From the NCBI GenBank assembly GCA_963728445.1, contig CAVSJO010000008.1:122333-186332 (forward strand): a stretch of DNA of 64,000 nt, written 5' to 3'. Shown here piece after piece: positions 2,076 through 64,000 of this stretch (positions are counted from its first letter, which is position 1; each line of letters starts with the position of its first letter). The notes below the pieces were generated by a model. That model saw only the letters and a program-made list of their open reading frames with translations, was not told the origin of the DNA and searched no databases. The DNA is from an uncultured Gemmatimonadales bacterium. GTDB lineage: Bacteria; Gemmatimonadota; Gemmatimonadetes; Longimicrobiales; RSA9. Both the position numbers and the translations under genes were made by a program.

Positions 2076-4753
2076 AGACCACATCGCAATGGACGGCCGT
2101 CGCGACGGCCATCGTGCTTGCCTGGGGCATCACCGCGCCCGCACCGGCGGCGGCCCAGGGCACCGCGAGCGTGCACCAGGGTGCGGAGCGGCTCGGCCTC
2201 GAGCTGCGGCGCCTCGGCACGACCAAGCGGGTGCTGATGATCGCCGCGCACCCCGACGACGAGAACACGGCGCTGCTGGCGGAGCTCGCGCTGGGGCAGG
2301 GGGCGGACGTCGCCTACCTGGCGCTGACGCGCGGGGAGGGCGGCCAGAACCTGATCGGGCCGGAGCTGGAGGAGGGGCTCGGGCTGATCCGCACCGAGGA
2401 GCTCATGGCCGCGCGGCGCCTGGACGGAGCGCGGCAGTTCTTCAGCCGCGCCTACGACTTCGGCTTCTCCAAGTCCGCCGACGAGGCGTTCGGCCACTGG
2501 CCCCGCGACTCGGTCCTCTCGGACGTGGTGGCGGTCGTGCGGAAATTCCGGCCGGACGTGATCGTGGCGGTGTTCACGGGCACGCCCGCGGACGGGCACG
2601 GGCAGCACCAGGTCTCGGGCATCCTGGCGCGGGAGGCGTTCCGGGCCGCTGCGGACCCGTCCCGGTTCCCTGACCAGGTGGCCCGGGGGCTCGCGCCGTG
2701 GCAGGCGAAGTACCTGTTCCAGTCGCTGTGGCAGGGCTCGCCGCCGGGCTCCATCCGGCTGTCGACGGGCGACCTCGATCCGCTGCTGGGCGAGTCGCAC
2801 TACCAGGCGGCGATGGCGAGCCGCAGCCGGCATCGCTCGCAGGACATGGGAACGGCGCAGCCGATCGGGCCTCAATCGGTGGCCGTGAATCCCGTGAGCG
2901 GCGGCTTCCCGGCGGGCGCGACGTCGATGTTCGCGGGAACGGACACGACGCTCTCCATCCTCGCCGCGGACGTGGCGGGCGCGCCGGCGTCGCTTCGCTC
3001 CGCGCTCGAGGACTACGAACGCCTGGTCGCATCGGCGCGGAAGGACTACAACCCGTTCCATCCGGAGTCGATCCGGCCGGTACTGGGCCGGGCGCTGGCG
3101 GACCTGGACCGGGCCGCCGGAACGGCCGCATCGCTGAAGGGGGAGGGCGCCGAAGCGCTGCGAGGTCGCCTGTCCGCGGAGCGGGAGCAGGCCGGCGCCG
3201 CCGCGTGGGACGCGGCGAACCTCGTGTTCGACGCCGTGGCGGACCAGCCCCGGGTCGTGCCGGGACAGGACCTCACCGTCACGCTGCGCCTCTGGAACGG
3301 CGAGGACTCGCCCGTACAGGTCGCGGCGCTGGAGCCGCGGCTGCCGGAGGGCTGGAGCGCGGAGCCGCAGGACGCGACGCCGACGAGCGTGGCCTCGGGC
3401 GACGTCGCCGCGAGACGGTTCCGGGTGCACGTCCCGGGCGACGCGCCGCCGACGGAGCCGTACTTCCTGCGGCGGCCGCGGAACGGCGACATGTACCGCT
3501 GGCCGGCGGCGGACTCCATCCGCAACCTGCCCTTCGCCCCGCCGGCCATGCAGGCGACGGCGAGGGTGAAGGCGGGGGACGCGACGCTCGTGTCGACGGA
3601 CGAGATCACGTACGCGGACGTCGACAAGGCGGTGGGCGAGCGGCGCGTGCCGATCCTCGTCGTCCCGGCGGTGTCGGTGGCCCTGACGCCGCGGGTCACG
3701 ATCGTCCCGGTTTCGCCGGCGGAGACGGCGAGCACGCGGGCCGACGGCGGGTCGGCCCGGACGGCGAGCGCGCAGGACGGCGCGGCCACCCGTGCGCCCG
3801 CCCGGGAGCTGACGGTGGAGCTGCACGCCGCGGCGGCGACGAAAGGGACGCTCGAGCTGACCGCGCCGGAGGGGTGGACCGTCGCACCGGCCCGGCAGTC
3901 GCTGGATCTGGCGGCGGGCGAGATGAGAACGGTGCGGGCGACGCTGACGCCGCCGTCCTCGCCGGCGCCGGGACAGCTCGCGGTGGACGCCGCGTTCCGG
4001 AGCGACGACGCCCGGACCTACGAGCGGGGCTACACGGTCATCGACTACCCCCACATCAGCCCCCACGCTCTGTACCGACCGGCGGAGACGCTCGTGTCCG
4101 TCGTGCCGGTGAGCGTGCCCGCGGACCTGCGGGTCGGCTACGTGATGGGCGCCGGTGACGACGGGCCGGACGCGCTGCGGCAGATGGGCGTGAGCGTGGA
4201 CCTGCTGGGCGCGGAGGCGCTCACGAGCGGGGACCTGTCGAAGTACGACGCCATCGTCACGGGCATCCGGGCGTACGAGGTGCGCACCGACCTGGACGCC
4301 AAGAACGGGCGGCTGATGGAGTACGTTCGGAACGGCGGGACTCTCGTCGTCCAGTACAACAAGTACGAGTTCGTGGAGGGGGACTACGCGCCGTACCCGC
4401 TCACCATGGCGCAACCGCACGACCGGATCACGGACGAGGATGCGGACGTGACGTTCCTCGAGCCGGACCACCCGGCGCTGTCGAGTCCGAACCGGCTGAC
4501 GCCGGAGGACTTCCATCACTGGATCCAGGACAAGGGGCTGTACTACGCCCACACCTGGGACGACCGATACACGCCGCTGCTGTCGATGCACGATCCGGGG
4601 GAGGAGCCGGTGGAGGGCGGGCTGCTGGTCGCGAAGGTCGGAAGGGGCTGGTACGTGTACACGGGGCTGGCGCTGTTCCGCCAGTTCCCGCAGGGAGTCC
4701 CGGGCGCGTACCGGCTGCTCGCGAACCTCGTCTCGCTGGGCTCGGCTCGGTGA
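2072..4753 (+). CDS. Secreted PIG-L/LmbE family deacetylase with NEW3-like Ig domains and a C-terminal GATase-like domain
   Basis: Signal peptide; AAHPDDE, LTRGEGGQN, DFGFSKS, HGQHQ, SRHRSQ. Confidence 0.85.
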   Translation: MKTTSQWTAVATAIVLAWGITAPAPAAAQGTASVHQGAERLGLELRRLGTTKRVLMIAAHPDDENTALLAELALGQGADVAYLALTRGEGGQNLIGPELEEGLGLIRTEELMAARRLDGARQFFSRAYDFGFSKSADEAFGHWPRDSVLSDVVAVVRKFRPDVIVAVFTGTPADGHGQHQVSGILAREAFRAAADPSRFPDQVARGLAPWQAKYLFQSLWQGSPPGSIRLSTGDLDPLLGESHYQAAMASRSRHRSQDMGTAQPIGPQSVAVNPVSGGFPAGATSMFAGTDTTLSILAADVAGAPASLRSALEDYERLVASARKDYNPFHPESIRPVLGRALADLDRAAGTAASLKGEGAEALRGRLSAEREQAGAAAWDAANLVFDAVADQPRVVPGQDLTVTLRLWNGEDSPVQVAALEPRLPEGWSAEPQDATPTSVASGDVAARRFRVHVPGDAPPTEPYFLRRPRNGDMYRWPAADSIRNLPFAPPAMQATARVKAGDATLVSTDEITYADVDKAVGERRVPILVVPAVSVALTPRVTIVPVSPAETASTRADGGSARTASAQDGAATRAPARELTVELHAAAATKGTLELTAPEGWTVAPARQSLDLAAGEMRTVRATLTPPSSPAPGQLAVDAAFRSDDARTYERGYTVIDYPHISPHALYRPAETLVSVVPVSVPADLRVGYVMGAGDDGPDALRQMGVSVDLLGAEALTSGDLSKYDAIVTGIRAYEVRTDLDAKNGRLMEYVRNGGTLVVQYNKYEFVEGDYAPYPLTMAQPHDRITDEDADVTFLEPDHPALSSPNRLTPEDFHHWIQDKGLYYAHTWDDRYTPLLSMHDPGEEPVEGGLLVAKVGRGWYVYTGLALFRQFPQGVPGAYRLLANLVSLGSAR

Positions 4754-9404: not shown

Positions 9405-10499
9405 ATGGCGCAGACCATACGAAAGATCGCGCTGAACACGGGCGGCGGGGACGCCCCGGGCCTGAACGCCGTGATCCGGGCCGTCGTGCTGGCGGCGATG
9501 CGACAGGGCATCGAGGTGTGGGGCATCCGGAAGGGCTACGGCGGCCTGCTGGGCGAGGACGCGATCGTCCGGCTCGATCAGGACACGGTGCGAGGCATTA
9601 CGCACCTGGGCGGCACGATCCTCGGCACGACGAACCGGGGCAACCCGTTCGAATGGCCGGTGGATCGGAACGGCGAAGTCGAGCACTACGTCGACCGCTC
9701 GGATGAGGTCGTCTCCGAGTTCGAGCGGCAGGGTTTCGACGCCCTCATCGCCATCGGTGGGGACGGCTCGCTCGGGATCGCCAGCCGGCTGGCGCGGAAG
9801 GGGCTGCCGGTGGTGGGCGTCCCGAAGACGATCGACAACGATCTCGCGGCCACCCAGGTGACGTTCGGCTTCCACACGGCGGTGCAGACGGCGACCGACG
9901 CCCTGGACAAGCTCGTCTCCACGGCCGAGAGCCACGAGCGGGTGATGGTGGTCGAGGTCATGGGCCGGCACACGGGATGGATCGCGCTGCACTCCGGCGT
10001 GAGCGCCAGCTCGGAGGTGATCCTGATCCCCGAGATCCCGTTCCAGATCGAGAAGGTGTGCGAGAAAATCGAGGACCGGTATCGGCGCGGCCGGCGGTTC
10101 GCCATCGTCGTCGCGGCGGAAGGCGCGCAGATGGTGGGTGGAGGCGCCTTCTACAAGGAGTCGGGCGGGCCCGGCCACGCGGCCCGCTATGGCGGCCTGG
10201 CGGAGTTCCTGGCGGCGGAGATCGAGCACCGCACCGGCCGGGAGACCCGGTCCATCGTACTGGGCCACCTGCAGCGGGGCGGCTCCCCTGTCTCGTACGA
10301 CCGTCTGGTCGCCCTGCGCTTCGGCGCCGCGGCCGTGCGCGCGGTGCTGGCCGGGAAGTTCGGGACCATGGTGGCCCTCGACCCACCGGAGGTTCGCGCC
10401 GTGCCCCTGGAGGACGCGATCGCACACCTGAAGCGCGTGCCCCTCGACTCGGACACCGTGCTCACGGCCCGGGCTCTGGGGATCTCCTTCGGCGACTGA
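9405..10499 (+). CDS. pfkA: 6-phosphofructokinase (PfkA family, group III/mixed-substrate type)
   Basis: TGGGDAPGLN, GGTILGTTN, GGDGS, PKTIDND, EVMGR, LGHLQRGG. Confidence 0.92.
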   Translation: MAQTIRKIALNTGGGDAPGLNAVIRAVVLAAMRQGIEVWGIRKGYGGLLGEDAIVRLDQDTVRGITHLGGTILGTTNRGNPFEWPVDRNGEVEHYVDRSDEVVSEFERQGFDALIAIGGDGSLGIASRLARKGLPVVGVPKTIDNDLAATQVTFGFHTAVQTATDALDKLVSTAESHERVMVVEVMGRHTGWIALHSGVSASSEVILIPEIPFQIEKVCEKIEDRYRRGRRFAIVVAAEGAQMVGGGAFYKESGGPGHAARYGGLAEFLAAEIEHRTGRETRSIVLGHLQRGGSPVSYDRLVALRFGAAAVRAVLAGKFGTMVALDPPEVRAVPLEDAIAHLKRVPLDSDTVLTARALGISFGD

Positions 10500-10614
10500 C
10501 CCGGCCCGCGCGCCATCCGCCGCCGGCGTCGCGTTGAAGCGATACTGCGCGGCGGGTATCTTCCCCCGGGGCGGTGCCCCACCGAATCCCTCGACATCTC
10601 ACAGGAAGACGAGC

Positions 10615-13086
10615 ATGAACCTGCGTCACGCCCTGGCCGGGTGCGCGCTGGCGGCCGCCGCGGCCGCTCCGCTCGCGGCTCAGCAGCAGGGATCCTTTGA
10701 GCTCACCGTGAACAGCATCATGCGCGGGCCGGAGCTCGTGGGAGAGGCGCCGTCCCGCGTCACCTGGACGCCCGACGGCCAGTGGGTCTACTTCCGCTGG
10801 AAGCCCGGCGGCGAGGCGTGGAACGAGGAGCCGTCGCTCTACCGCGTGCGGTCGTCCGGCAGAGAGCCGGAGAAGCTGACGGACGAGGAGGCGGACTCCC
10901 TCGGCGTGCTGCTCGCTTCGGGCGACGTCTCCCGGGACCGGTCGCGGCGCGTCGTCTCCTACGAGGGGGACCTCTATCTGATCCGGCGTCAACCGCTGTC
11001 GATCCGCCGGCTGACGCGCACGAAGGCGGTCGAGGCGGAGCCGGTCTTCTCGAAGGACGCCAGCCGCGTCTACTTCGTCCGGGACGACAACGTGTTCGCC
11101 CTCGATCTGGGTGCCGGGGCCGTGCGTCAGCTCACGGACATCCGAAAGGGTCCGAAGCCGAAGGAGGAAGAGAAGGCCGAGGGCCAGCGCGCGTTCCTGG
11201 AGGAGCAGCAGAAGGAGCTGTTCGAGACCATCCGGGTCCGGGAACAGGAAGAGGCCGAGCGGAAGGCACGCAGGGAGGCGAAGGAGAAGGAGGGGCTGCA
11301 GACGGTCTGGATCGGACCGAAGGAGCGGGTCTTCGCTCTCGCGGTGGATCCGGACGGGGAGCACGCGGTGCTGACCGTCGGCAATCCGGGCGAGGACCGG
11401 AGCACGCTCGTGCCGAAATGGGTGACGGAGTCCGGCTACGTGGAGAGCATCCAGGGGCGCCCGAAGGTGGGGGACGAGGAGCCGATGGCGCGCATGGCCC
11501 TGGTCGATCTCTCGGACGGCACCGCCCGGTGGCTGGACGTGGGGCCGCCCGGCGGTGACGAGACCGAGCCGCCGGCCGCGGGGGCCGACAGCGCCGTCGT
11601 GGACGCCGCTGCCGCGGACAGCTCCGGAAACGCCACGTCGGCGGCTCATGCCCCCCGGCCGCGCTTCGCCCGGATCTCCTTCCTCGGCTGGAACGACGCG
11701 GGCACGAAGGGCCTCGTCGGGGCGGTCTCCTATGACTACAAGGACCAGTGGCTGCAGGTGCTCGACGCCGGAACCGGTCAGCTGACGACGATCGCCCACG
11801 ACCACGATGACGCGTGGATCGGCGGTCCCTGCGACCCGTGGCTGAGCTCGAGCTGCGCCGGCTGGATCCCGGACGCCGACGCTGCCTGGTTCGTCAGCGA
11901 GCGGAGCGGCTGGTCCCACCTCTACCGCGTTCGGGCGGAGGCCGGCGCGGAGCCGAAGCAGCTCACGAGCGGGCAGTGGGAGGTGAAGGACGCCGGCATC
12001 GCGCCGGACCGACGCCACTTCGGGATGCACACCAGCGAGCGCTCGGCGTTCGACCAGGACTTCTATCGCATGGGCCTGGAGGGCGGCGAGCGAACCCGGC
12101 TCACGCAGGACCCCGGGCTGCACAGCGTCACGCTGTCACCGGACGGCGACGAAATGGCCGACGTGTACTCGACGTCGAACCACCCGCCGGAGCTCTACCT
12201 GGCGGACGCGAAACCGGGCGCGAAGCGGGAGCGCATCACGACCTCACCCACCGCAGAGTGGAGCGCCTATCCCTGGATCGCGCCGGAGATCGTGACGGTG
12301 CCGGCCCGCGATGGGGTGAAGGTTCCGGCCCGCATCTATCGGCCCGCCGACGTGGGCGCCACGCCGAACGGGGCGGGCGTCATCTTCGTCCACGGCGCCG
12401 GGTACCTGCACAACGTGCATCACGGCTGGAGCGACTATTTCCGCGAGTACATGTTCAACCACCTCCTCGCCTCCAAAGGCTACGTGGTGCTGGACATGGA
12501 CTACCGCGGCTCCGCCGGCTACGGGCGCGACTGGCGGACGGCGATCTACAGGCACATGGGCGGGAAGGACCTGACGGACCAGGTCGACGGCGTGAAGTAT
12601 CTCGTCGCGAACGAGGGCGTACAGGACCCGGAGCGGGTCGGCATCTACGGCGGCTCGTACGGCGGGTTCATCACCCTCATGGCTCTCTTCACCCAGCCGG
12701 ACTGGTTCGGGGCGGGCGCGGCCCTGCGCTCCGTCACGGACTGGGCGCACTACAATCACTGGTACACGGCCCGGATCCTGAACCTGCCGCAGGACGACAG
12801 CACGGCGTACCGGCAGAGCTCGCCGATCTACTTCGCCGACGGGCTGCAGGACCCGCTCCTCATCGCCCACGGGATGCAGGACACCAACGTAGAGTTCCAG
12901 GATGTGGTCCGGCTGGTGCAGCGGCTGATCGAGTTGAAGAAGACGGGGTGGGAGCTGGCGGTCTTCCCGGTGGAGAACCACGGCTTCGTGGAGCCGACGT
13001 CCTGGATGGACGAGTACCGGCGCATCCTGGCGCTCTTCCAGCGGACCGTAGGCTCACCGGCCGCCGCGAGGACCGATCCCCGGTAG
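10615..13086 (+). CDS. Secreted S9 family (DPP IV-like) serine peptidase
   Basis: Signal peptide; beta-propeller N-domain; GGSYGG, DTNV, ENHGF triad motifs. Confidence 0.9.
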   Translation: MNLRHALAGCALAAAAAAPLAAQQQGSFELTVNSIMRGPELVGEAPSRVTWTPDGQWVYFRWKPGGEAWNEEPSLYRVRSSGREPEKLTDEEADSLGVLLASGDVSRDRSRRVVSYEGDLYLIRRQPLSIRRLTRTKAVEAEPVFSKDASRVYFVRDDNVFALDLGAGAVRQLTDIRKGPKPKEEEKAEGQRAFLEEQQKELFETIRVREQEEAERKARREAKEKEGLQTVWIGPKERVFALAVDPDGEHAVLTVGNPGEDRSTLVPKWVTESGYVESIQGRPKVGDEEPMARMALVDLSDGTARWLDVGPPGGDETEPPAAGADSAVVDAAAADSSGNATSAAHAPRPRFARISFLGWNDAGTKGLVGAVSYDYKDQWLQVLDAGTGQLTTIAHDHDDAWIGGPCDPWLSSSCAGWIPDADAAWFVSERSGWSHLYRVRAEAGAEPKQLTSGQWEVKDAGIAPDRRHFGMHTSERSAFDQDFYRMGLEGGERTRLTQDPGLHSVTLSPDGDEMADVYSTSNHPPELYLADAKPGAKRERITTSPTAEWSAYPWIAPEIVTVPARDGVKVPARIYRPADVGATPNGAGVIFVHGAGYLHNVHHGWSDYFREYMFNHLLASKGYVVLDMDYRGSAGYGRDWRTAIYRHMGGKDLTDQVDGVKYLVANEGVQDPERVGIYGGSYGGFITLMALFTQPDWFGAGAALRSVTDWAHYNHWYTARILNLPQDDSTAYRQSSPIYFADGLQDPLLIAHGMQDTNVEFQDVVRLVQRLIELKKTGWELAVFPVENHGFVEPTSWMDEYRRILALFQRTVGSPAAARTDPR

Positions 13087-13177
13087 GGGGCCTCGGGAGA
13101 CGATCGGGGCGATCCGCCCGAACACGGACGAAGATCGGGCGGGTCAGCCCGCCCGCAAGCAGCCGGAACCGGGCGGG

Positions 13178-13819
13178 TCAGCCCGCCCGATTCCGCAGGA
13201 CCCGGCCGGCGTAGCCGTTGTCCGCGTCCTCGCCACGGCTCCGGAGCCGATCCACGGTTCCGGGGCCGCGGTTGTACGCCGTCAGCGCGGTCCAGATGTC
13301 TCCGTCGTACCGGTCGATCAGGTAGTGCAGGTAGCGGAATCCGAGGCGGAGGTTGGTGTCCGTCTCGAAGAGGTCGCCGCGGGCGGTGCCCGGCACCAGC
13401 CAGCGGGCGGTGGCCGGCATCACCTGTGTGTAGCCCACGGCACCGACGGGCGAGACGGCAGTCCGGCGGAAGCTCGACTCGGTTCGAACGAGCTGGAACG
13501 CGACGCGCGGGCGGACGTTCTCTGCGAGCGCGGCCCGCGTGATGCGGTCCGCGAGGTCGATGGGGACGTCGTACTCGTCCGCCAAGTGGGTCGTGAGCTG
13601 AAGTCGAGAAGCCGCGTCTCGCAGCCTGGCGCGGTGCTCGGCGACGGTCGGATTGACCGGCGCCGCGGCGGCGTCCGCCGCGGCGGTGTGGAAGCCGGCG
13701 AGGAACTCCGCCGGGTGTGTGAGCGCGGCCGGCGCCACGAGCAGCGTGGCGACGAGGGCACGTATGAGGGGCCGCCGAACGGATGGCAGCCGCCGAGCTC
13801 GAAGGAGCGTGCGCGTCAC
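13178..13819 (-). CDS. Lytic transglycosylase (SLT domain)
   Basis: VRTESSF, AVSPVGAVGYTQVMPATA, AYNRGPG. Confidence 0.88.
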   Translation of the reverse strand: MTRTLLRARRLPSVRRPLIRALVATLLVAPAALTHPAEFLAGFHTAAADAAAAPVNPTVAEHRARLRDAASRLQLTTHLADEYDVPIDLADRITRAALAENVRPRVAFQLVRTESSFRRTAVSPVGAVGYTQVMPATARWLVPGTARGDLFETDTNLRLGFRYLHYLIDRYDGDIWTALTAYNRGPGTVDRLRSRGEDADNGYAGRVLRNRAG

Positions 13820-13949
13820 CGCGTACCTCCCTGGGTTCGGGTTCGGGACGAAACAGCCGGGCGCGCTGCGTCTCGTCGACGCCGTGGGCCCGGCTCGATC
13901 GTCACGGTCGAATCGGTGCTACCCTCTCCCCCATGGCCGGTTCCCGGCC

Positions 13950-14315
13950 TCACGAGCCGAGCCGGACGCTGGTGGCCTGCGTCCGGCTGAGCGTGACCTG
14001 CTTCTGGAACGTCGTTCCGCCGTCCTTCGGACGCCCCACGATCGTCACCGACGCGCTGCTCGGGGAGGAAATCACGAACCGCTGGGTCGCGCCCGCGTCC
14101 ACCGTCCCCAGGAGGGCCGAGCCGCGGGAATCCTCATAGCTGACGACCAGCGGCTGGCCCGCGTCGTTCTGCACCACGACCGTGTACGCGATGCCGGGCT
14201 GCGACTCCACCGCCACGGCGCGGCTGCACGCCGCAGCAAACGTTACCGTCGCGACGAAGGCGAACACCCGTACCGCGGCGGCCGAGGCTGCTCCCCTGCT
14301 TCTGCGAGACATCAT
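13950..14315 (-). CDS. Hypothetical lipoprotein
   Basis: Lipobox FAAAC after a hydrophobic stretch; beta-rich mature part. Confidence 0.65.
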   Translation of the reverse strand: MMSRRSRGAASAAAVRVFAFVATVTFAAACSRAVAVESQPGIAYTVVVQNDAGQPLVVSYEDSRGSALLGTVDAGATQRFVISSPSSASVTIVGRPKDGGTTFQKQVTLSRTQATSVRLGS

Positions 14316-14379
14316 GATGCGCCTCCTCTGCGTGGGTCGCGGACCGGGGTGCAGGAAGCGTGCGCGGCCGGCGCCGGGC

Positions 14380-14410
14380 AAAAAAAAACCGCCGCGGCAA
14401 CCGCGGCGGT
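14380..14410 (-). terminator. Rho-independent terminator
   Basis: ACCGCCGCGG/CCGCGGCGGT stem followed by a T run on the minus strand, downstream of the 14438 stop. Confidence 0.8.
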
Positions 14411-14437
14411 CGGCGTCCGGACGACGGGGCCGGGCCC

Positions 14438-14854
14438 TCAGTCCGGGAAGCTGATCGTGCGCGTGGTCGCGTCGTCGGGTGAGCTCCCGGTCATGAGCTC
14501 GATCATCGCCCGCATCTCGGCGCCCATGCGGGCGACCCGCTCCCGCATGGCGAGCACGTGTCCGAAGTCGAAATAGGCCAGGACCGCCGACTCGGACCCG
14601 ACGTGCTCCTCCGTGATCGCGCTCTCCATCCGCTCCTGCAGGTACGCGGTCACCAGCGCGATCACCCGCTCGAGCGTCTGCTGACGCGCGTACGTCCGCA
14701 CGCTGAGGTCGCCCGAAAGCCGCGGCAGCAGGGCCTCCACGTCCGCGACGACCTCCGGCGGCGCGGCGACGCCGCCGCCGTCGTAGGAAGCCAGAACGCT
14801 CTCGATCCCGTTCGTCAGGGCCGTGAGCTCCTCGTAGCTGCACCGAAGGATCAC
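14438..14854 (-). CDS. Hypothetical helical protein
   Basis: AAGGAG RBS before GTG; natural composition (ILRCSYEELTAL...YFDFGHVL); followed by a terminator. Confidence 0.7.
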   Translation of the reverse strand: MILRCSYEELTALTNGIESVLASYDGGGVAAPPEVVADVEALLPRLSGDLSVRTYARQQTLERVIALVTAYLQERMESAITEEHVGSESAVLAYFDFGHVLAMRERVARMGAEMRAMIELMTGSSPDDATTRTISFPD

Positions 14855-15170
14855 GGGAGACTCCTTGCCTGCGTCTCGAGGCGGCGCGGAAGTGCCGCCC
14901 ACACCAAAAGATATCCCGATCCTGCCACTTCGTTCCGCAATCCGCGTTCCCTGGCGCGCACCCCCTATCCGGGCCCCCGGAGGGGCCGGATCACGGAACC
15001 CGTATCTCTCTACGTATCAACGACTCGCGCGGTTGCAGACGGACATCCGGGCGGCGGGTGCAGGGCTGCCCCGTGCGTAACGGATCGTCGCGTTTCGCCC
15101 GAATCGTGGCGTTCCGCGTCCACGCCCTGCCGCGGTGGTGCGACAGGTGAGACGCCTCCGGCGAAGGCGG

Positions 15171-15929
15171 TCAGACGCCTTCGCGATGCATCAGCCAGTC
15201 GGCGAGCCAGAGACCGGCGACCAGGTCCAGCGCCGCGTGGGCTGCCATCGCCGGCAGCACGCTGCCGACCAGAACGAGCGGCAGCGCGAGTACGAAGCCG
15301 AGGAGCGTCGCCCGGAGGACGCCGGTTGCGCCCTGATAGGAGTGGACGAGTCCGAACGCGACGGAGGAGACGGCGGCTCCAATCCAGACGTTACCGGATG
15401 CGGCGCCGATGGCCGGCACGAGAAAGGACCGGAACGCCAGCTCCTCGCCGATGCCGGCCGAGAGGGAGACGCCGACGAAAGCCCAGCGCTCGGCCCGCGT
15501 CGAAGGGAGCACCAGGTCGACGAGCGTGGTCTCGGAGGCGCCGAGCAGCCGGGCGACGACGAGCACGGCGATCCCGGCGGCCAGGGCGATGGCCGCCCAG
15601 CCGTACGCGGGCCCCGCGCCCGGCCAGCGAAGGCCGAGGAGGGCGGGCGTGAAGCCGGCGCCGAGTCCGAGGACAAGGCCGACGGCGCCCATGGCCCAGA
15701 TCGCGGCCGCCGACGAGGCGTAAACGGACATGCGGGACCCCGCCGCGGCAGTCAGGTCGGCACGCGCCAGCATGTCGGCCTGGAGGAGCGTGAGGGCGGG
15801 CAGGAAGACCAGGAAGAGAACCACGCCGACGCGCCCGGGCCACGGGAGGGGCGTGGCGGCGAACCATGCCACGGCCGCCGCGACCAGAACCGCGGCGGCC
15901 AGCGCTCGCCGATTCAATCCGCCGTCCAC
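15171..15929 (-). CDS. CPBP/Abi family intramembrane glutamic endopeptidase
   Basis: GIGEELAFRSF, FGLVHSYQG, AAHAALD; multiple TM segments. Confidence 0.88.
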   Translation of the reverse strand: MDGGLNRRALAAAVLVAAAVAWFAATPLPWPGRVGVVLFLVFLPALTLLQADMLARADLTAAAGSRMSVYASSAAAIWAMGAVGLVLGLGAGFTPALLGLRWPGAGPAYGWAAIALAAGIAVLVVARLLGASETTLVDLVLPSTRAERWAFVGVSLSAGIGEELAFRSFLVPAIGAASGNVWIGAAVSSVAFGLVHSYQGATGVLRATLLGFVLALPLVLVGSVLPAMAAHAALDLVAGLWLADWLMHREGV

Positions 15930-15930
15930 G

Positions 15931-16836
15931 TCAGGTCTCCCCGCGAAGACGGCGGTACAGCCGCGGCGCGACGCCGGCCGCCGCGAGTCCAAGCAGGAGG
16001 CCCGTGGAGGCATCGACGGCGTAGTGGAAGCCGCCGTAGACGGCGCCGAGCGCCAGTCCGGCGGTGAGGACGGCAGCCACCGACAGGAACGCCGGCAGGT
16101 AGAGGGCCACGTTCACGCACTGGGCGGCGGAAACGCCGACGTGCGACGAGGGGAAGGCCGCGCCGCGGCTGGAGCCGGACTCCAGGATCCGGTGCGCCAG
16201 GGCCCAGGCAGGTCCCCGGGCGCTTGCGGCCACGGGCGTGGGGAACAGGTAGCGGGGTCCCTGGACCGGGAAGTACACGAAGAAGAGGTAGTGCACGAAG
16301 AAGGCGAGCATGAGGGCGAAGACCGACTTCAGAAAGGCCGGTCGCCGGCCCCTCGAGTAGAGGATCAGGGGCGGCCCGTAGATGAGGAGATAGTACGACA
16401 GATAGGACGCGTGCAGCCACTCGGAGAGAGCCTTCCAGGTGAAGCGGGCGGCCAGGTCGTGGCTGGGGTAGCCGCCGAACACGGCATGCTCGGCGGTCAG
16501 GATGAGCGGATCGAAGTAGCGCCCGTTCCACACCGCCACGTTCAGCACCGCCAGCTCGGAGTAGAGCACGGGGATGAGGAGCAGCGGGTACCAGTCGGCC
16601 GTGAAGCGGGAGGCTCGCGGGAACGCCTTCCCCATCCGGGCGAGCCCGCGGCCGAAGGGCCCGATCCGGAGCGCGAACAGGATTCCGAAGAGATGGAAGG
16701 CCGCCCAAACCGGCCACGTGGGCGGCCGGTGTGGGAACACGAGAGCGACGCCGGCCGCGGCCAGGTACGCGGCGAAGAGGAGATCGACGGGTCGGGGCCG
16801 GCCGCGCGGCTCCGTTCCCGGGCAGGGAACCGTCAC
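15931..16836 (-). CDS. PAP2 superfamily membrane protein, Aur1/inositol-phosphorylceramide-synthase-like
   Basis: FPVQGPRY, AAFPSSHV, YGGFHYAVD motifs; about 8 TM segments. Confidence 0.8.
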   Translation of the reverse strand: MTVPCPGTEPRGRPRPVDLLFAAYLAAAGVALVFPHRPPTWPVWAAFHLFGILFALRIGPFGRGLARMGKAFPRASRFTADWYPLLLIPVLYSELAVLNVAVWNGRYFDPLILTAEHAVFGGYPSHDLAARFTWKALSEWLHASYLSYYLLIYGPPLILYSRGRRPAFLKSVFALMLAFFVHYLFFVYFPVQGPRYLFPTPVAASARGPAWALAHRILESGSSRGAAFPSSHVGVSAAQCVNVALYLPAFLSVAAVLTAGLALGAVYGGFHYAVDASTGLLLGLAAAGVAPRLYRRLRGET

Positions 16837-56297: not shown

Positions 56298-58080
56298 ATG
56301 GCGGAACCCGAGTACACCGAGCTGGGACTCACGGAGCGCACCGCAGCCGCCGCGCTGGCGGCTGGCTGGGACGCGCCGACCTACCTCCAGCGGATCGCGA
56401 TCCCCGTGATCCGGCGGGGCGGCAATGCCGCCCTCCTGGCGACCTCCGGCGCCGGGGTGGTCGGCGCCTGGGGCCTCCCCCTCCTCGACCGCCTGCTGGA
56501 GGAAGGCGACGCCGGGACCGGCACCCCGCGCGCCCTCGTCCTCGCGCCCACGCCGGAGCAGGCCGCGGCGCGCGCCGTCTGCCTCGGCCGCCTGGCCAGG
56601 CGGAACGGATCTCCGCATCGCCGCGCTCTCGCCCGCGTGGCCCGCGCCGGCCGAAGCCGCCGTCCTCGTCGCGGATCCCGCCGCCGCCCTGGCGGCCATG
56701 AAGGGGTCCCGCCTGAAGCTCGAGGGCGTCGCCGCGGTCGTGGTGGACGGGATCGACGCCATCGCCGCCCTCGACGGCCTCGAAGCCGTCGAGGCTCTGG
56801 TCGGGGCTGCGCCCCGGGACGCGCAGCGGATCGTCAGCGGCGGCGATGACGACGCGCTGGACGAGTTCGTCGAGCGCCACGGCCGCCGCGCCGTTCGATT
56901 CCCGCCCCGCCCCGCGGACGCCCGCGCTTCGGCCGCCAGCGGTCCTGCGGGCGCCACGACGGGCTATCTCGTCGTTACGGCCGCCGGCCGCGCGGAGGCC
57001 GTCGCAGCCCGGATCGCCGCGGGCGATCCCGGCCAGCGCTGGCGCGTTCCGGTGCGGACGCCGCGCGAGGCGAACGTCCTCGTGACGGATCTGCGAGCTC
57101 GCGGCTTCGACGCCGCGACGGGCGGGTCCGAGGACGCCCGCGTGCTCGTGACGTCCGCCGCGGAGCCGGACACGGGCGACGACGATCGCGCGGTCCTGAG
57201 CGCGAGTCCCCCCTTCGACGCCGGGACGCTGCGCGCCCTTCACGGCACCTCGGGCGGCGTGGTGCTGCTGGAGGCGCGGGAGCTGCCCCACCTCCGGCGC
57301 ATCGCCGCGGAGGCGGGCGTGCCGCTTACCGCCGCGGCCGGCGCCGCGCACGCCGGCGGCGCACCCGACACCGTTCACGCGTTCCGCCAGACCGTGCGGC
57401 GCGCGCTCCAGGAGGAAGACGTGGACGCGCAGCTCCTGGTCCTCGGCCCGCTCCTCGAAGAAGCGTCCGGAGCCGAGATCGCCGCCGCCCTCGCGGCGCT
57501 GCTGCGCCAGCGCCGGCCTGCCGTTCCGGCGCCGCAGGCCCAGGCGCCGCAGGTCGCTTCGGCCGTGCCCTCGTCCTCATCCCCGCCGCCGCCGACCGCC
57601 GGGCCCGCGATGACGGGACTGTTCATCAGTCTCGGCGACAAGGACCGCATCCGACCCGGCGACCTCGTGGGCGCCATCACCGGCGAGGCCCAGGTGCGGG
57701 GCGAACAGATCGGCCGCATCGAGATCCGCGAGACGTTTTCACTCGTGGAGGTCGAACAGAGCATCGCCGAGCGGGTCATCGGCGCGCTGAACGGCACGAC
57801 GCTCCGGGGACGCAGCGTGCGGGTCGACTACGACAGGAAGTCGGGCGGCTCGCCGGGGGCCACCGGGCAGCACTCGCCAGGCGGCGCGCGGAATCAGCCG
57901 CCCCGGGGGCGCCCTCCCGGGGGACGCCCATCGGGCGGGCGGCCTTCCGGCGGTCGGCCTTCCGGCGGGCGGCCTTCCGGCGGGCGGCCTTCCGGCGGGC
58001 GGCCTTCGGGCGGTCGACCCTCTGGCGGACGGCCTTCGGGCGGACGGACGGGCGGAGGAGGCGAGCGCGGCAACCGCTGA
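56298..58080 (+). CDS. Degenerate DEAD-box helicase-like protein with C-terminal DbpA RNA-binding domain; frameshift near 56598
   Basis: Q-motif (YTELGL...PTYLQ) and ALVLAPT retained; DbpA domain LFISLGDKDRIRPGDLVGAI...IGRIEIRETFSLVEV; Walker A and DEAD motifs degenerate. Confidence 0.78.
57919..58048 (+). repeat. 15-bp coding tandem repeat encoding (GGRPS)n, about 8 copies
   Basis: Repeated GGCGGGCGGCCTTCC-like units in the C-terminal tail. Confidence 0.85.
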
Positions 58081-60210: not shown

Positions 60211-60756
60211 ATGATCGATTACGAGGGCGCCTGGGAGCGGGCGGAGCCGTTCAAGCAGTTCGTCGACAGCGCTTCCCACCAACGTGAGATGTGGCTCGGC
60301 GTGTACCAGCGGACTGTCGTCCCCGAGTCCCTGGTGGACCGCGCCGCGGCGGCCGGCGGGCCGTGGCGAATTCTCGTTCTCGCCGAGGACTGGTGCGGTG
60401 ACGCGTTCAATACCGTGCCCGTCATCGCACGGCTCGCGGACCGAATTCCCGATGTGGAGGTGCGGATCCTCAAGCGGGACGAGAATCCCGCCGTCATGGA
60501 GGCGCATCTCACGGGCACCGCGCGCTCGATTCCCGTCGTCATGCTGCTGGACGGGGAGTTCCGGGAGCACGGATGGTGGGGTCCGAGACCCGCGGAGCTC
60601 CAGGAATGGTTCCAGGCGGAGGGCCGCGCGATGGAATCGAAGGACCGCTACAGGGAGATCCGTCGCTTCTACGCCCGGGACCGCGGCCGCACGACGCTCG
60701 AGGAGATCATTCGGATGATGGAGCGTGGCTCGCGGAGAGACCCCGCCGCGGCCTGA
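60211..60756 (+). CDS. Thioredoxin-fold protein (WCGD type)
   Basis: EDWCGD, SIPV, WGPRP. Confidence 0.85.
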   Translation: MIDYEGAWERAEPFKQFVDSASHQREMWLGVYQRTVVPESLVDRAAAAGGPWRILVLAEDWCGDAFNTVPVIARLADRIPDVEVRILKRDENPAVMEAHLTGTARSIPVVMLLDGEFREHGWWGPRPAELQEWFQAEGRAMESKDRYREIRRFYARDRGRTTLEEIIRMMERGSRRDPAAA

Positions 60757-61453
60757 CCGCACCCGACCCAAGGCGCGGCCGCACGTCCACGGCGACGGCC
60801 GCGCCGACGGCAAGGAGGGCGGCCGGCTCGACGAGGGCGAGGCGCGCGGCGAGCGGCCAGAGCGTCCCGAGATCCGGATAGCGCAGGTCGAGCAGCCCCG
60901 TTGCGGCAAACAGGTTCGCGCCGGCAGGACTGGCCGCGGCCGCGGCCACCATGACCAGCCCGAGCACGCCCACCGCAACAAGCGGAAAACGAGTACGCAG
61001 CCCGACCTCGGCGAGGAGGAGTGCCGGAAGAACGCCGAGCCCGATCGCGCCGGGGACGAGCACCTCCCACGCCGCGATCTCGACGCGACCCGGGAACGCC
61101 GCCAGGGTGACGACGAACGCGGCTGCGGAGAAGCACACGAGCGAGGCGAACGCCGTCGCCACGCGAGCGGTCACGTACGTGCCCGCGTCGACGAACGCCG
61201 GCACGAGAAACTCGTGGAAGCTCCTCGCGCGGTCTTCCCCCAGCCCGGACCGGTAGACGCACCCGAGCCCCAGCACGTAGCCCCACGGGAGGAGCTCCCG
61301 CGCCCCGTCGACGGTCATCCGTCCCGTGGCGCACCCCCACCCGCAGAGCGCGGCGATGGCCGACACGGCGACCATGGCCGCGAGCGCCGACCGGCTCCGG
61401 AGCCGCGCAGCCAGCTCGAGTCGGGTGAGCGCCACGCAGCGGCCGGCGTTCAT
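60707..61453 (-). CDS. ABC-2-type permease-like membrane protein
   Basis: About 6 TM segments; start overlaps the ATPase stop. Confidence 0.7.
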   Translation of the reverse strand: MNAGRCVALTRLELAARLRSRSALAAMVAVSAIAALCGWGCATGRMTVDGARELLPWGYVLGLGCVYRSGLGEDRARSFHEFLVPAFVDAGTYVTARVATAFASLVCFSAAAFVVTLAAFPGRVEIAAWEVLVPGAIGLGVLPALLLAEVGLRTRFPLVAVGVLGLVMVAAAAASPAGANLFAATGLLDLRYPDLGTLWPLAARLALVEPAALLAVGAAVAVDVRPRLGSGAVRPRRGLSASHAPSSE

Positions 61454-62091
61454 CGGCAGCCGGGCCTCCCCTCGCCCGTCTCCCACAGCGCCTCGCCCAG
61501 CAGTCGCAGCAGCGATCCCGACCCCGACTCCGCGGGCGCATGGTGGGTCGCGACGACGACCACGGCGTGCCGCGCGCGGCGGTCGAGGATGGCCGCCAGC
61601 CGGGTCCGCGACGCGGGCGAGAGATGATCGAAGGGCTCGTCCAGAAGGTAGAGCTGCGCCGGCCGTCTCAGGAGCGCGTCGAGCAGCAGACGACGCGTCT
61701 CGCCCGTGGAGAGACGGTCGATGCGCTGCTCTCCCCGGAGCCCGGGAGGGGCGAGCTCGCTCGGCTCCCATTCCGCGCTCCCCAGCCCCTCGAGCAGCCG
61801 CATCCAGTCGGAGACCCGGGCCCCCGGTGGGGGACGGACGGCCGGGTGGAGGTAGGCAACGCGACCGGGTGGTCGGCGGACCCGGCCGCCGGAGGCGGGA
61901 AGGCGGCCGGCCAGGCAGCGGAGCAGCGTCGACTTGCCCGCGCCGTTCTCTCCGACGACCCAGGCGATCCGGCCCGGTCGGACCTCCCACGAGAGGCCGC
62001 GGAGCACGAGCGTGTTTCGCTGCCGGAGGGTGACGTCCTCCAGCTCGAGGCCGCCCGTCGGGGCGCTCACGGCGGGACCGGACATGACCAC
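61450..62091 (-). CDS. ABC transporter ATP-binding protein
   Basis: GENGAGKST, LSTGE, LYLLDEP, VATH. Confidence 0.88.
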   Translation of the reverse strand: MVMSGPAVSAPTGGLELEDVTLRQRNTLVLRGLSWEVRPGRIAWVVGENGAGKSTLLRCLAGRLPASGGRVRRPPGRVAYLHPAVRPPPGARVSDWMRLLEGLGSAEWEPSELAPPGLRGEQRIDRLSTGETRRLLLDALLRRPAQLYLLDEPFDHLSPASRTRLAAILDRRARHAVVVVATHHAPAESGSGSLLRLLGEALWETGEGRPGCR

Positions 62092-63116
62092 CAGGCGCTG
62101 CTGTCGTCCACGACCACGACGTCCCTCCGACTGGAGAGTCGGGCCAGAGCCACTGCGTTCGCGTCGATGGCGAACGCGCCGCGGAACCGGAAGGCCGAAT
62201 CGGCCCGCACGACGGCCTTCTCCAGGTGCCCCCCGGGCAGGCGTCGTCCCGTGCGCGTCACGTAGAGCACGTCGCCGGTGCGGGCATCGAGCTGGATGGC
62301 GGACGCCACCACGGCGATGCGGGAGACGACCTCATCGGTCACCGGAGGCTCCGGCACGTGGTCGACAAGGTAGCGCGTCGCGGCCGGCAGGGGGACGGCC
62401 ACCGCGCCACTCACGTTCGTGCCGCGGCCGCGGAAGGCCGTGGGGACGAGAAACGAGTGGGCGGCCACCCACGATCCGTCGCCCCGCGCCGAGAGGGCGA
62501 GCACGTTGGCGATCCCCTTGATGGACATGTCGGCGAACGGCGCCGCCGGCACGTCCAGCGGCACGGCCCGGTCGCCCTCGATCGCGTACACCAGCCGGCC
62601 CGGCAGACGGCCGTACACGTACGCCGTCACGAGCACCCCGCTGCCGGCCTGGCGGACGACCATCGGAGAGAAGTCCACCCGCACCTCGCCCCGGTCCCGA
62701 CCCTCGAGGGACAGCCGCTTGATACGCCTGCCCCGGCCGTCGGTCACGAGGAGGAGCGAATCCCCTGCGACGGCGGCGGACATGGGCTCCGATACGCCCC
62801 GGGGCCCAGACTCCTCGAGATCCAGCATCCAGCGCCGCTGCAGGTCAGGGCCGAGCAGCTCGACCCGCCGCTCGGGGCCGTACAGCACGAGCACCGCGCT
62901 GTCGCCGGGCGTCGACACCTCCGTCACCTCCGAACGGCCCGGATTCACCGACAGCGGGTCGCAATGGACCGCCACCCCGTCGGTGAAGTCGTCCAGGTAG
63001 ACGGGCGAGGGCCCGCTTCCGCGGGAGCACGACGCGCCGGCCAGCAGCAGCGCCGGAAGGCACCGTCCCCACCCGCGCCCAATCTTCACCGGCGCTGCCG
63101 CCGGCCGGCCCGACAC
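62067..63116 (-). CDS. Lipoprotein, probable beta-propeller
   Basis: Lipobox-like LAGASC; NHL-like blades (GPRGVSEPMSAAVAGDSLLLVTDGRGRRIKRL). Confidence 0.7.
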   Translation of the reverse strand: MSGRPAAAPVKIGRGWGRCLPALLLAGASCSRGSGPSPVYLDDFTDGVAVHCDPLSVNPGRSEVTEVSTPGDSAVLVLYGPERRVELLGPDLQRRWMLDLEESGPRGVSEPMSAAVAGDSLLLVTDGRGRRIKRLSLEGRDRGEVRVDFSPMVVRQAGSGVLVTAYVYGRLPGRLVYAIEGDRAVPLDVPAAPFADMSIKGIANVLALSARGDGSWVAAHSFLVPTAFRGRGTNVSGAVAVPLPAATRYLVDHVPEPPVTDEVVSRIAVVASAIQLDARTGDVLYVTRTGRRLPGGHLEKAVVRADSAFRFRGAFAIDANAVALARLSSRRDVVVVDDSSAWWSCPVPP

Positions 63117-63119
63117 CGT

Positions 63120-63332
63120 CTACTCCTTCCGGATGATGTGCGCGATGCAGGCGCCGTAGCGGACGCCGCACTCGATCTCCTCCAGCTGCCGCGCCAGCGC
63201 CGAGCTCTCCTGCGTGGCGTCGTTCAGGCAGAGGAAGTAGCTGTTCGTGCACGTCGCGCTCGCGGACTTCGGCGCTGCCACGAGCGACAACCCGGCGACG
63301 GCGACCGGCATCAGCTTCACGAAGGCCTTCAT
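63120..63332 (-). CDS. Secreted Cys-rich peptide precursor (70 aa; 44-aa mature part with 2x CxxxYxxC)
   Basis: GGAGGG RBS; signal peptide MKAFVKLMPVAVAGLSLVAAPKSASA; mature TCTNSYFLC...ECGVRYGAC. Confidence 0.8.
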   Translation of the reverse strand: MKAFVKLMPVAVAGLSLVAAPKSASATCTNSYFLCLNDATQESSALARQLEEIECGVRYGACIAHIIRKE

Positions 63333-63411
63333 GCTTCCCTCCCGGGGCTCAGGCCCCGACTCGTGTCGACGCGGGCGACGCCGACGTGCGCCGCTCGCCC
63401 GTTCGACGAAG

Positions 63412-63426
63412 GCACGCCCGGGGCCA
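63412..63426 (-). promoter_or_regulatory. Putative sigma54 (-24/-12) promoter TGGCCCCGGGCGTGC
   Basis: TGGC with GG-N10-GC spacing, 80 nt upstream of the peptide ATG and directly downstream of a sigma54 activator gene. Confidence 0.5.
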
Positions 63427-63604
63427 CCCGCCCGCCTTACCGTAACATAATGGAGCGCAATGACTTGCGCTGTTTTCACACCGTCCCGCTTCGCGCGTGA
63501 GTGCGCACCATCGGCCGGTCCCCGCAGCCGACTGCGCGCATTCGCCCCAATACCGCCACCGCGGCCGCGGCTGTCCATGGCGGAATCGGCCAGCGTTGGG
63601 CCGC

Positions 63605-64000
63605 TCATCCGCGGCCTGGCGTCGAAGGGTCGGACTTCGCGGAGCCCGGCGAGGAGGGGTCCAGGCCGTGGGTGCGGAGCTTGGCGCGCAGTGTGCCGCG
63701 GGACATTCCGAGGAGCGCCGCGGCGCGCGTACGGTTGCCGCGGCAGCGGTCGAGGGCGTCGAGGATGCGTGCGCGCTCCTGGGCGGGCGGGCCGTTGTAG
63801 GCGTAGCGCGGCCATGCGAGGGGAGCCCGGCCGCCGGCGTCCCGGGCCGTCGGCCCCGGGGCGGGCGCATCGGGATCGTCCGCGATGACGGGTCGCTCGC
63901 CGCGGACGACCTCGGGGAGGTCGAGCACGCGGATCTGGGGGCGGTCGCACGACAGCACCGCCGCCTCGACGGCGTGGGCCAGCTCGCGGACGTTGCCGGG
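63605..64000 (-). CDS. sigma54-dependent (NtrC/Fis-type) transcriptional activator, C-terminal part, truncated by the window edge
   Basis: PGNVRELAHAVE (end of AAA+ domain) and Fis HTH GNRTRAAALLGMSRGTLRAKL. Confidence 0.88.
   Translation of the reverse strand, partial: PGNVRELAHAVEAAVLSCDRPQIRVLDLPEVVRGERPVIADDPDAPAPGPTARDAGGRAPLAWPRYAYNGPPAQERARILDALDRCRGNRTRAAALLGMSRGTLRAKLRTHGLDPSSPGSAKSDPSTPGRG

Follow-up and report, generated by a model that had tools for sequence, protein, structure and literature searches.

A Sec-signal twin-cysteine peptide, a propeller lipoprotein and an ABC transporter encoded as one conserved unit in Gemmatimonadota

What does a bacterium do with a small, cysteine-paired peptide that bears a Sec-type signal and whose gene is packed tightly against the genes of a lipoprotein and an ATP-binding cassette (ABC) transporter? 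This question is raised by one end of a 64,000-nucleotide stretch of DNA (here called the window) from an uncultured Gemmatimonadales bacterium, contig CAVSJO010000008.1, in which genes for a sigma-54 activator, the peptide, the lipoprotein, an ABC ATPase and a permease follow one another on the minus strand between positions 60707 and 64000. All five genes lie where the initial annotation of this DNA had placed them, and the tight packing that it described for the last four, with one 3-bp gap followed by overlaps, is borne out. Our analysis shows these four to be true genes that are coupled in translation and kept together as one conserved module, which appears restricted to Gemmatimonadota. 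Modelling supports binding of the peptide to the lipoprotein, which is itself modelled as a beta-propeller. Our tentative reading, to which we give a probability of roughly 40%, is that the module produces a Sec-exported antagonistic peptide, from which a peptide-binding lipoprotein and an ABC-2 pump would protect the producer.

The coupling of the genes can be read directly from their junctions. The propeller gene begins with a GTG 3 bp past the TAG stop codon of the peptide gene, and the ATG of the permease gene overlaps the TGA of the ATPase gene (ATGA). Two in-frame alternative starts are available to the ATPase gene, an ATG at 62085 and a GTG at 62070, the second of which overlaps the TGA of the propeller gene. 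The peptide open reading frame (ORF) is separated from the activator gene by a spacer of 272 bp, and a strong ribosome binding site, GGGAGGG, stands 5 nt ahead of its ATG. We considered whether this ORF might be a chance frame, and we reject that explanation in favor of a real gene because the GC content at its third codon positions (GC3) is 0.99, compared with 0.67 for the intergenic stretch and 0.87 to 0.90 for the neighbouring genes, and because the peptide has 118 relatives.

These relatives were recovered with a profile of 18 homologues, run against a collection of 5.8 billion proteins, as 118 peptide clusters. A Pfam domain is present in none of them; those that have a name are called "hypothetical protein," bar one evidently spurious label, and the organisms, where named, are Gemmatimonadota or Longimicrobiales. 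The Sec-type signal that had been proposed for the precursor can be recognized in its lysines at positions 2 and 6, its hydrophobic core and the residues SASA ahead of T27-C28, and a basic N terminus with a hydrophobic run ahead of the first cysteine is found in 116 of 117 relatives, whose N termini thus appear signal-like as well. The twin CxxxYxxC motif originally noted in the mature part needed to be widened. Its twin character stands, with two C-x6-C pairs in 117/118 clusters, but the tyrosine is not fixed, all 117 having Y, F or W at position +4 in both halves, and the general form is C-x3-[YFW]-x2-C. In the window's peptide the motif residues are C28, Y32 and C35 in the first half and C55, Y59 and C62 in the second. 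The spacing between the cysteine pairs is exactly 18 residues in 112 of the 118 clusters, and LND follows the second cysteine in 104 of them; across the peptide alignment the four cysteines are invariant and the glutamate ahead of the third cysteine is invariant or near-invariant. Single-sequence word searches with the peptide and with the propeller returned self-matches only, where profile searches succeeded. No paralogous peptide was detected in the window's genome by profile search. In the Atlas, unnamed clusters of about 70 amino acids, commonest in Acidobacteriota, lie at 0.91 and would be candidate relatives at most.

The structure suggested for the mature peptide is a helical hairpin. 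In the AlphaFold2 model, which was built with nine sequences, residues 22 to 40 form one helix, a turn follows, and residues 45 to 69 form a second helix, with a predicted local distance difference test score (pLDDT) of 93 to 95 over the mature part. Positions i, i+4 and i+7 share one helix face; therefore, the cysteines and the aromatic residues should line the interface between the helices, and two nested disulfides, C28-C62 and C35-C55, would be expected to form around a small aromatic core in the periplasm. A Foldseek search with the model gave nothing at an E value of 0.001 or better, the best match being neurotoxin B-IV at 1.7; plant alpha-hairpinins and the bc1 hinge protein were among the rows returned and are suggestive of a fold class only. 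The best PDB sequence match of the peptide profile is the twin-Cx9C protein Mdm35, which at an E value of 0.97 to 1.3 is not significant, and the CT..Y..C[LF]N[DE] and EC...Y..CV motifs of the two align once 3-residue gaps are allowed.

The second gene of the module encodes a lipoprotein whose model (pLDDT 86.1, predicted template modelling score 0.84) is a six-bladed NHL-like propeller. The resemblance is one of fold only. It is to the NHL domain of Brat (Z 23.1, root mean square deviation 3.1 over 257 residues), to a DUF4221 lipoprotein from Bacteroides, 3s9j (Z of 20.4 across 298 residues), to peptidyl-hydroxyglycine lyase (Z 18.9) and to TRIM2 (Foldseek E 2.1e-11). Such a fold alone gives no function, and the lipoprotein has no match to the Pfam NHL family at E values up to 1. 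A profile search of 1.84 billion representatives yielded 108 proteins at an E value of 1e-30 or better. Among the best 150 rows, 75 are single-stretch matches of 148 to 382 residues and the rest are long repeat proteins, whose NHL-like blades the profile matches one by one. Where database members carry a name, it is "hypothetical protein," and the organism belongs to Gemmatimonadota. Across 57 aligned full-length propellers, C52, P255 and C345 are invariant, and the lipobox cysteine Cys30 together with D119, D126, N204 and H220 is at least 90% conserved. Pfam and NCBIfam hold no family for the peptide, the propeller or the permease, and the module itself is not described in the literature searched, nor are DUF4221/NVEALA-type propeller lipoproteins (supplements were not covered by this search). 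The initial view that the locus matches no named system is therefore one that we share.

How widely is this gene set found, and does it travel as a set? Among close relatives, the propeller occurs in 6 of 24 other genera of the family and in none of 16 genomes from two sister families; over the whole family it is present in 26/73 genomes and 11/37 genera. Counted by genus, its presence is 5/5, 2/2, 3/3, 6/7, 2/2, 2/2 and 2/2. The peptide profile finds the same 26 of the 73 genomes, with no discordant genome. An even sample of the phylum, 401 genomes, contains a near-full-length propeller match in only 4, and a single propeller sequence used as the query found no related locus. When DNA was scanned with a degenerate pattern for the peptide, 61 stretches were returned, 13 of them true peptide genes and all of these in Gemmatimonadota-type records; the pattern is narrow, and absence elsewhere is not implied by this result.

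Gene order was compared over 31 loci, two of which start inside the propeller gene, leaving 29 with 5' flanking sequence. Recurrence of the order peptide, propeller, ABC transporter and activator had been proposed as a check, and the first three elements recur. In 29/29 flanked loci the gene immediately upstream of the propeller gene, on the same strand, encodes a twin-Cx6C peptide, and an ABC ATPase gene lies downstream of the propeller gene in 28/31. The remaining three are a locus with ATPase and permease genes upstream, a contig fragment and a sister-family genome without an ABC gene beside the pair. The activator, the fourth element, is adjacent in only 10 of the 31. In some genomes the peptide gene is multiplied. 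Genome G450 carries two tandem peptide genes before the propeller gene, at L073:2923-3135(-) and 2551-2760(-), and in five genomes of one genus (G004, at L048:6690-6875(-), and G451, G453, G454 and G455) a second, divergent twin-Cx6C peptide gene lies just past the permease gene and is preceded by a promoter-like element whose type matches that of the first gene. Identity to the window's copies is 24 to 42% for the peptide, propeller and permease, 35 to 50% for the ATPase and 52 to 60% for the activator; judged by sequence identity, the components predicted to be exposed to the envelope are the most diverged.

The strict association of peptide and propeller has a counterpart in structure prediction. 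We modelled residues 31 to 349 of the propeller with residues 27 to 70 of the peptide in three runs, alongside three controls. The interface score ipSAE was 0.83 (median of the 3 runs) and 0.00 for the best of the 3 controls, the partner had a pLDDT of 85, and the runs agreed in at least 93% of their contacts. The mark applied to this score is reached by 58/80 solved complexes and by 2/110 mismatched pairs, counts that apply here only roughly, as the prediction was made with alignments of our own. In the model, contacts are made by peptide residues 27 to 29 and 53 to 70, that is, helix 2 and the tail, and by propeller residues 112, 127-128, 150-152, 166-168, 198-205, 221-222, 258-273, 297-298, 320-322 and 338. 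The prediction thus has helix 2 and the C-terminal tail of the peptide docking across the top face of the propeller, flanking the near-invariant residues N204 and H220, and it supports binding between the two. The suggestion that the propeller may serve as a receptor or immunity partner of the peptide gains from this contrast of scores and from the occurrence of both in the same 26 genomes.

In the transporter encoded by the last two genes, the ATPase has an intact Walker A motif (GENGAGKST), signature (LSTGE) and Walker B motif (LYLLDEP), and is a bare nucleotide-binding domain of 213 amino acids without a peptidase. It falls under every NCBIfam cut-off, scoring 75.7 against 131.6 for CcmA and 48.5 against 254.85 bits for the lactococcin-972 ABC model TIGR03608, and its profile finds generic ABC domains only in the PDB. 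The profile of the permease finds nothing among PDB sequences at E values up to 10; the nearest Atlas cluster is an ABC-2 permease (0.95, 193/256 features), which we treat as a lead only.

Several known systems resemble the module in part. In the lantibiotic immunity system LanI/LanFEG, as here, a peptide gene is followed by those of a predicted peptide-binding lipoprotein, an ATPase and a small exporter-type permease. Here, however, the peptide carries a Sec signal rather than a leader served by LanT, the lipoprotein is a propeller, the host, a member of Gemmatimonadota, is presumably diderm and a single permease gene stands in place of two; no lanthipeptide precursor, LanB, LanC, LanM or other lanthionine enzyme was found among the neighbours of the module. 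Lactococcin 972 offers an unmodified peptide with a Sec signal beside an ABC ATPase and a membrane partner, but the present peptide has no family match in NCBIfam, and the lactococcin 972 system has no propeller lipoprotein. By analogy with these systems, the module would be a Sec-dependent case of a known arrangement of peptide, binding lipoprotein and ABC pump.

Likenesses to the peptide itself lie elsewhere. Glycocins such as sublancin and glycocin F are helix-loop-helix peptides with a cysteine spacing of C-x6-C. Their disulfides are two in number and nested (PMC12457901). Our peptide shares with them the two C-x6-C pairs, in its sequence, and the helical hairpin, in its model, and its nested disulfides are predicted. 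It lacks two defining features of glycocins, a glycosyltransferase and a C39-processed leader, the leader here being a Sec signal; no S- or O-glycosyltransferase family was found among the ORFs of a region that reaches about 7 kb below the module and about 13 kb above it. The other likeness is to Mdm35 and further CHCH proteins, in which a disulfide-stapled helical hairpin, such as is predicted here, clamps a partner between two membranes, and which have similar local motifs. With an E value of about 1, an x6 rather than x9 spacing and a bacterial origin with Sec export, we do not claim homology. The peptide is not a member of the glycocin, lactococcin-972, lanthipeptide or CHCH families.

The reading that we put forward, of an antagonistic peptide with its own protection system, would run as follows. 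The peptide would be exported by Sec and oxidised in the periplasm to a hairpin with two disulfides, and it would act on competitors in the manner of a microcin, through a receptor and not by membrane lysis, since it is anionic. The propeller lipoprotein would capture the producer's own peptide in the fashion of LanI, and the ABC-2-type pump would clear peptide from the inner membrane or periplasm, as LanFEG, McbEF or the lactococcin-972 ABC system does. In this lineage, expression would depend on a sigma-54 activator of the module's own that has no sensor domain; in others it would be switched on through a conserved structured leader. When a small peptide gene neighbours an ABC-2 pump, the two belong mostly to a self-immunity or export system, as with LanFEG, McbEF and lactococcin 972. 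It is on this likeness in arrangement to LanI/LanFEG, McbEF and lactococcin 972 that our reading leans, together with the duplication of the peptide gene and the fast divergence of the exposed parts; extra peptide copies would, by the same analogy, be usual for a peptide-toxin locus.

A number of observations weigh against such a role. Mature peptides are net negative in 113/117 cases, with a median charge of -2.6, which is a misfit with a classical cationic membrane-active peptide and sets them apart from the majority of bacteriocins that act on membranes. Within genera the module seems to be inherited vertically and not to vary by strain. In a host that is presumably diderm a Sec-exported peptide ends in the periplasm, and the module encodes no route for release through the outer membrane. 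The propeller is unrelated to LanI, and the ATPase stays far under the cut-off of the lactococcin-972 ABC model. Finally, the predicted interface joins helix 2, where the peptide is most conserved, to near-invariant residues of the propeller, and it would suit an old obligate complex equally.

The strongest rival explanation takes up this last point and makes the peptide a small periplasmic subunit or adaptor that sits permanently on the propeller, in a complex that the ABC-2 transporter powers or supplies. Analogues exist in NosL with NosDFY, in CcmAB with CcmE and in Mdm35, which clamps Ups1 in the mitochondrial intermembrane space. Co-occurrence of peptide and propeller without exception, from genes 3 bp apart, is what a fixed complex would give, and the confident and conserved predicted interface, the vertical presence within genera and the anionic, not amphipathic-cationic, character of the peptides all speak for it, as does the retention of a Sec-exported peptide in the periplasm of a diderm cell unless it is released. 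That the best PDB match is Mdm35, with similar local motifs, points the same way, but this match lacks statistical significance and the cysteines are spaced by x6 and not x9. A fixed subunit would not usually be encoded in extra and tandem copies. The peptide gene, moreover, comes first in the operon and has an extreme codon bias, which suggests that the peptide is made in excess of its partner. The module has no recognisable substrate-handling domain, and no known machine has this composition. On balance we hold this explanation to be somewhat unlikely. A bolder form of it, which we regard as unlikely, would see in the peptide the bacterial counterpart of the mitochondrial twin-CxnC (CHCH-like) mini-proteins, not a toxin: an oxidatively folded periplasmic hairpin that acts as an obligate clamp or adaptor of the propeller and, with the ABC-2 motor, forms an undescribed trans-envelope machine of Gemmatimonadota, with either a sensor-less sigma-54 activator or a new structured RNA leader as its switch.

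How the module is controlled bears on a further explanation. It had been introduced as a sigma54-linked operon, and in the window this is apt. The activator gene, whose whole ORF (L003:2938-4008(-)) extends 675 bases past the window end, encodes 356 amino acids with a Sigma54_activat domain (PF00158) at residues 12-178 (E 1.3e-62), a lid at 184-261 and HTH_8 at 299-334; the GAFTGA motif is present, and the genome encodes rpoN (PF04552, E 1.1e-63, at G000:C5). The N-terminal sensor domain that was thought to lie beyond position 64000 is not there, as the Sigma54_activat domain begins at residue 12 of 356, and the protein is a sensor-less activator, which we take to be of the PspF type. It shares with PspF-type activators the AAA+ domain with GAFTGA, the Fis-type helix-turn-helix and the lack of a regulatory N-terminal domain, but it has no PspA-like partner nearby and the genes that it would regulate are unrelated to the psp operon. 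Because the activator accompanies no more than the 10 loci mentioned above, the link to sigma-54 is a feature of one lineage and not of the module. Those 10 loci also have the window's wider neighbourhood of HU, GAF kinase and POT transporter genes.

A sigma-54-like element, TGGCCC-N5-GTGCC, lies 94 nt 5' of the peptide ATG in the window. Taken alone, the GG/GC pattern shows no enrichment in the window, where it matches 14 times with 9.6 matches expected, a count of 14 being reached in 11 of 100 shuffles. Comparison of loci is more informative: elements of the form YGG(C/T)CC-N5-NTGC(C/T) are present 94 to 115 nt 5' of the peptide gene in 7/10 activator-linked loci, and none of the 17 loci that lack an adjacent activator has an element with a score of 7 or more in this interval, although one of them, the contig fragment L078, has a near match of score 6 at -103. 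Three activator-linked loci of one genus have GTGAC in place of the expected TGC. About 28 bp 5' of the -24 element the window has a perfect inverted repeat. No activator-binding palindrome common to the activator-linked loci was found; the repeat can be proposed as the activator's site by inference only, because it is not conserved as such in those loci.

In 11 loci of other genera (L059, L060, L061, L014, L064, L067, L068, L070, L071, L072 and L074), the peptide gene is instead preceded by a common upstream region of about 95 nt, with a promoter-like GTCCCA ... GCCCCnTATC followed by a leader. Folded as single sequences, the leaders form one long hairpin in 11/11 loci; changes in the stem are compensatory, AAGGGTCGGC at the apex hardly varies, and the 3' strand reaches up to the ribosome site. 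Rfam gave no match on the peptide leaders, and RNAalifold did not recover the long stem from a MAFFT alignment that had misplaced its 3' strand. In the genome of the window itself, no leader-like copy of the leader motif GAAGGGTCGGC is present. These structured leaders may represent a cis-regulatory RNA not described before, which in these lineages would take the place of the sigma-54 activator. Four activator-less loci also have a thiamine pyrophosphate (TPP) riboswitch (66 to 71 bits against a gathering score of 54.3) on the opposite strand, reading away from the module; it is a conserved neighbour that is probably unrelated to the module.

These regulatory features are relevant to the idea that the module is a signalling loop, in which the propeller would sense the peptide and the state of the ABC transporter would be fed back to the sensor-less activator, much as MalK holds MalT. 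An activator that lacks a sensor domain must be controlled in trans, a sigma-54-like element stands ahead of the peptide gene, and the peptide is predicted to bind the propeller. The activator, however, is absent from 21/31 loci, and signalling through it is therefore not the core function; the transporter is of the exporter type and no binding-protein-dependent importer; and neither a kinase nor a receptor domain is part of the module, the GAF histidine kinase close by being a context common to only one relative. We consider a signalling loop of this kind quite improbable. Least credible of all is a role in metal or redox handling, in which four reduced cysteines would bind a soft metal in two Cys2 sites for the propeller and ABC pump to pass on or expel, for although the four cysteines and the glutamate ahead of the third are (near-)invariant and a copper-type P-type ATPase with HMA domains is encoded about 8 kb away in this genome, the periplasm is oxidising, the i/i+7 spacing and the aromatic core residue fit structural disulfides, there are no His or Met metal motifs, and the P-type ATPase lies outside the conserved neighbourhood.

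Downstream of the module lie genes for a Thioredoxin_9 protein, the GAF histidine kinase, HU and the tail of a DEAD-box helicase; upstream lie those for a POT transporter and for two proteins without a family. No modifying enzyme for peptides that are made on ribosomes and modified after translation (RiPPs), and no C39 peptidase, is encoded among the neighbours on either side, as the initial annotation had remarked, and this agrees with a peptide that is unmodified and depends on Sec. Two relatives have a radical-SAM gene past the POT transporter gene, about 4 kb off (L044:13100-14831(+) and L045:6526-7545(+)), and in L044 only it is preceded by a VTT-domain gene. We rejected a radical-SAM RiPP because this gene is missing from the corresponding place in the window's genome, and for the same reason neither it nor the VTT-domain gene is counted as a part of the module. 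The Thioredoxin_9 gene (E 2e-36; 60211-60756 (+)) is convergent with the permease gene, their 3' ends overlapping by 50 bp; it was not found in eight related regions compared, and we rejected it as a module part. The DbpA-domain RNA helicase ORF at 56425-58080 (+) ends in about nine tandem copies of the pentapeptide GGRPS (57890-58080 (+)). Genome G007 has a paralogous locus, L049, with the order ATPase, permease, peptide, propeller, after which an outer-membrane efflux protein (OEP, E 1.6e-58) and an ORF of 1060 amino acids follow within 1 to 4 kb, at 10157-11881(+) and 13074-16256(+), respectively. Coordinates of the features of the module are collected in Table 1.

Table 1. Positions of the module's genes and regulatory elements in the window, and of TPP riboswitches at related loci
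Feature	Coordinates	Strand	Basis
Sigma-54 activator, 3' end (C-terminal 131 residues)	63605..64000	-	HTH_8 E 1.1e-13 and AAA_lid_14 (Pfam)
Perfect inverted repeat AGCGCAA-GTCA-TTGCGCT, candidate activator site	63454..63471	-	Sequence
Sigma-54-like -24/-12 element TGGCCC-N5-GTGCC	63411..63426	-	Pattern and locus comparison
Short GC hairpin CGGGGC-CTGA-GCCCCG, running into ribosome binding site GGGAGGG	63337..63358	-	Sequence
Precursor peptide ORF, 70 aa	63120-63332	-	ORF reading
Putative Sec-type signal peptide, precursor residues 1-26, ending SASA	63255..63332	-	Read from sequence
Mature 44-aa peptide and stop codon, twin C-x3-aromatic-x2-C	63120..63254	-	Sequence and model
Lipoprotein, 349 aa, six-bladed NHL-like beta-propeller (modelled)	62067..63116	-	Model and alignment
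ABC ATPase, 213 aa or fewer (start codon-dependent)	61450..62091	-	PF00005 E 6.9e-16
Permease, 248 aa, six-helix membrane protein, ABC-2-like	60707..61453	-	ORF; Atlas lead only
TPP riboswitch sites	L074:2857-2961(+), L067:3140-3240(+), L060:2902-3007(+), L064:925-1027(-)		

Collectively, the locus brings together three protein families without a name, the peptide with its 118 clusters, the propeller lipoprotein with about 75 full-length representatives and the permease, in one tightly linked unit of a poorly studied soil phylum. It also provides a concrete surface prediction, in which helix 2 of the peptide would meet the propeller at its top face. Should the peptide prove antagonistic, a diderm bacterium would be the source of an unmodified, anionic hairpin peptide that depends on Sec and is accompanied by a new kind of immunity lipoprotein; if the peptide is instead a structural partner of the propeller, it would be a bacterial analogue of the twin-Cx(n)C proteins of the intermembrane space. 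The placement of the same module under two alternative controls, a sensor-less sigma-54 activator in one lineage and a structured leader in others, would constitute a natural experiment in regulatory replacement.

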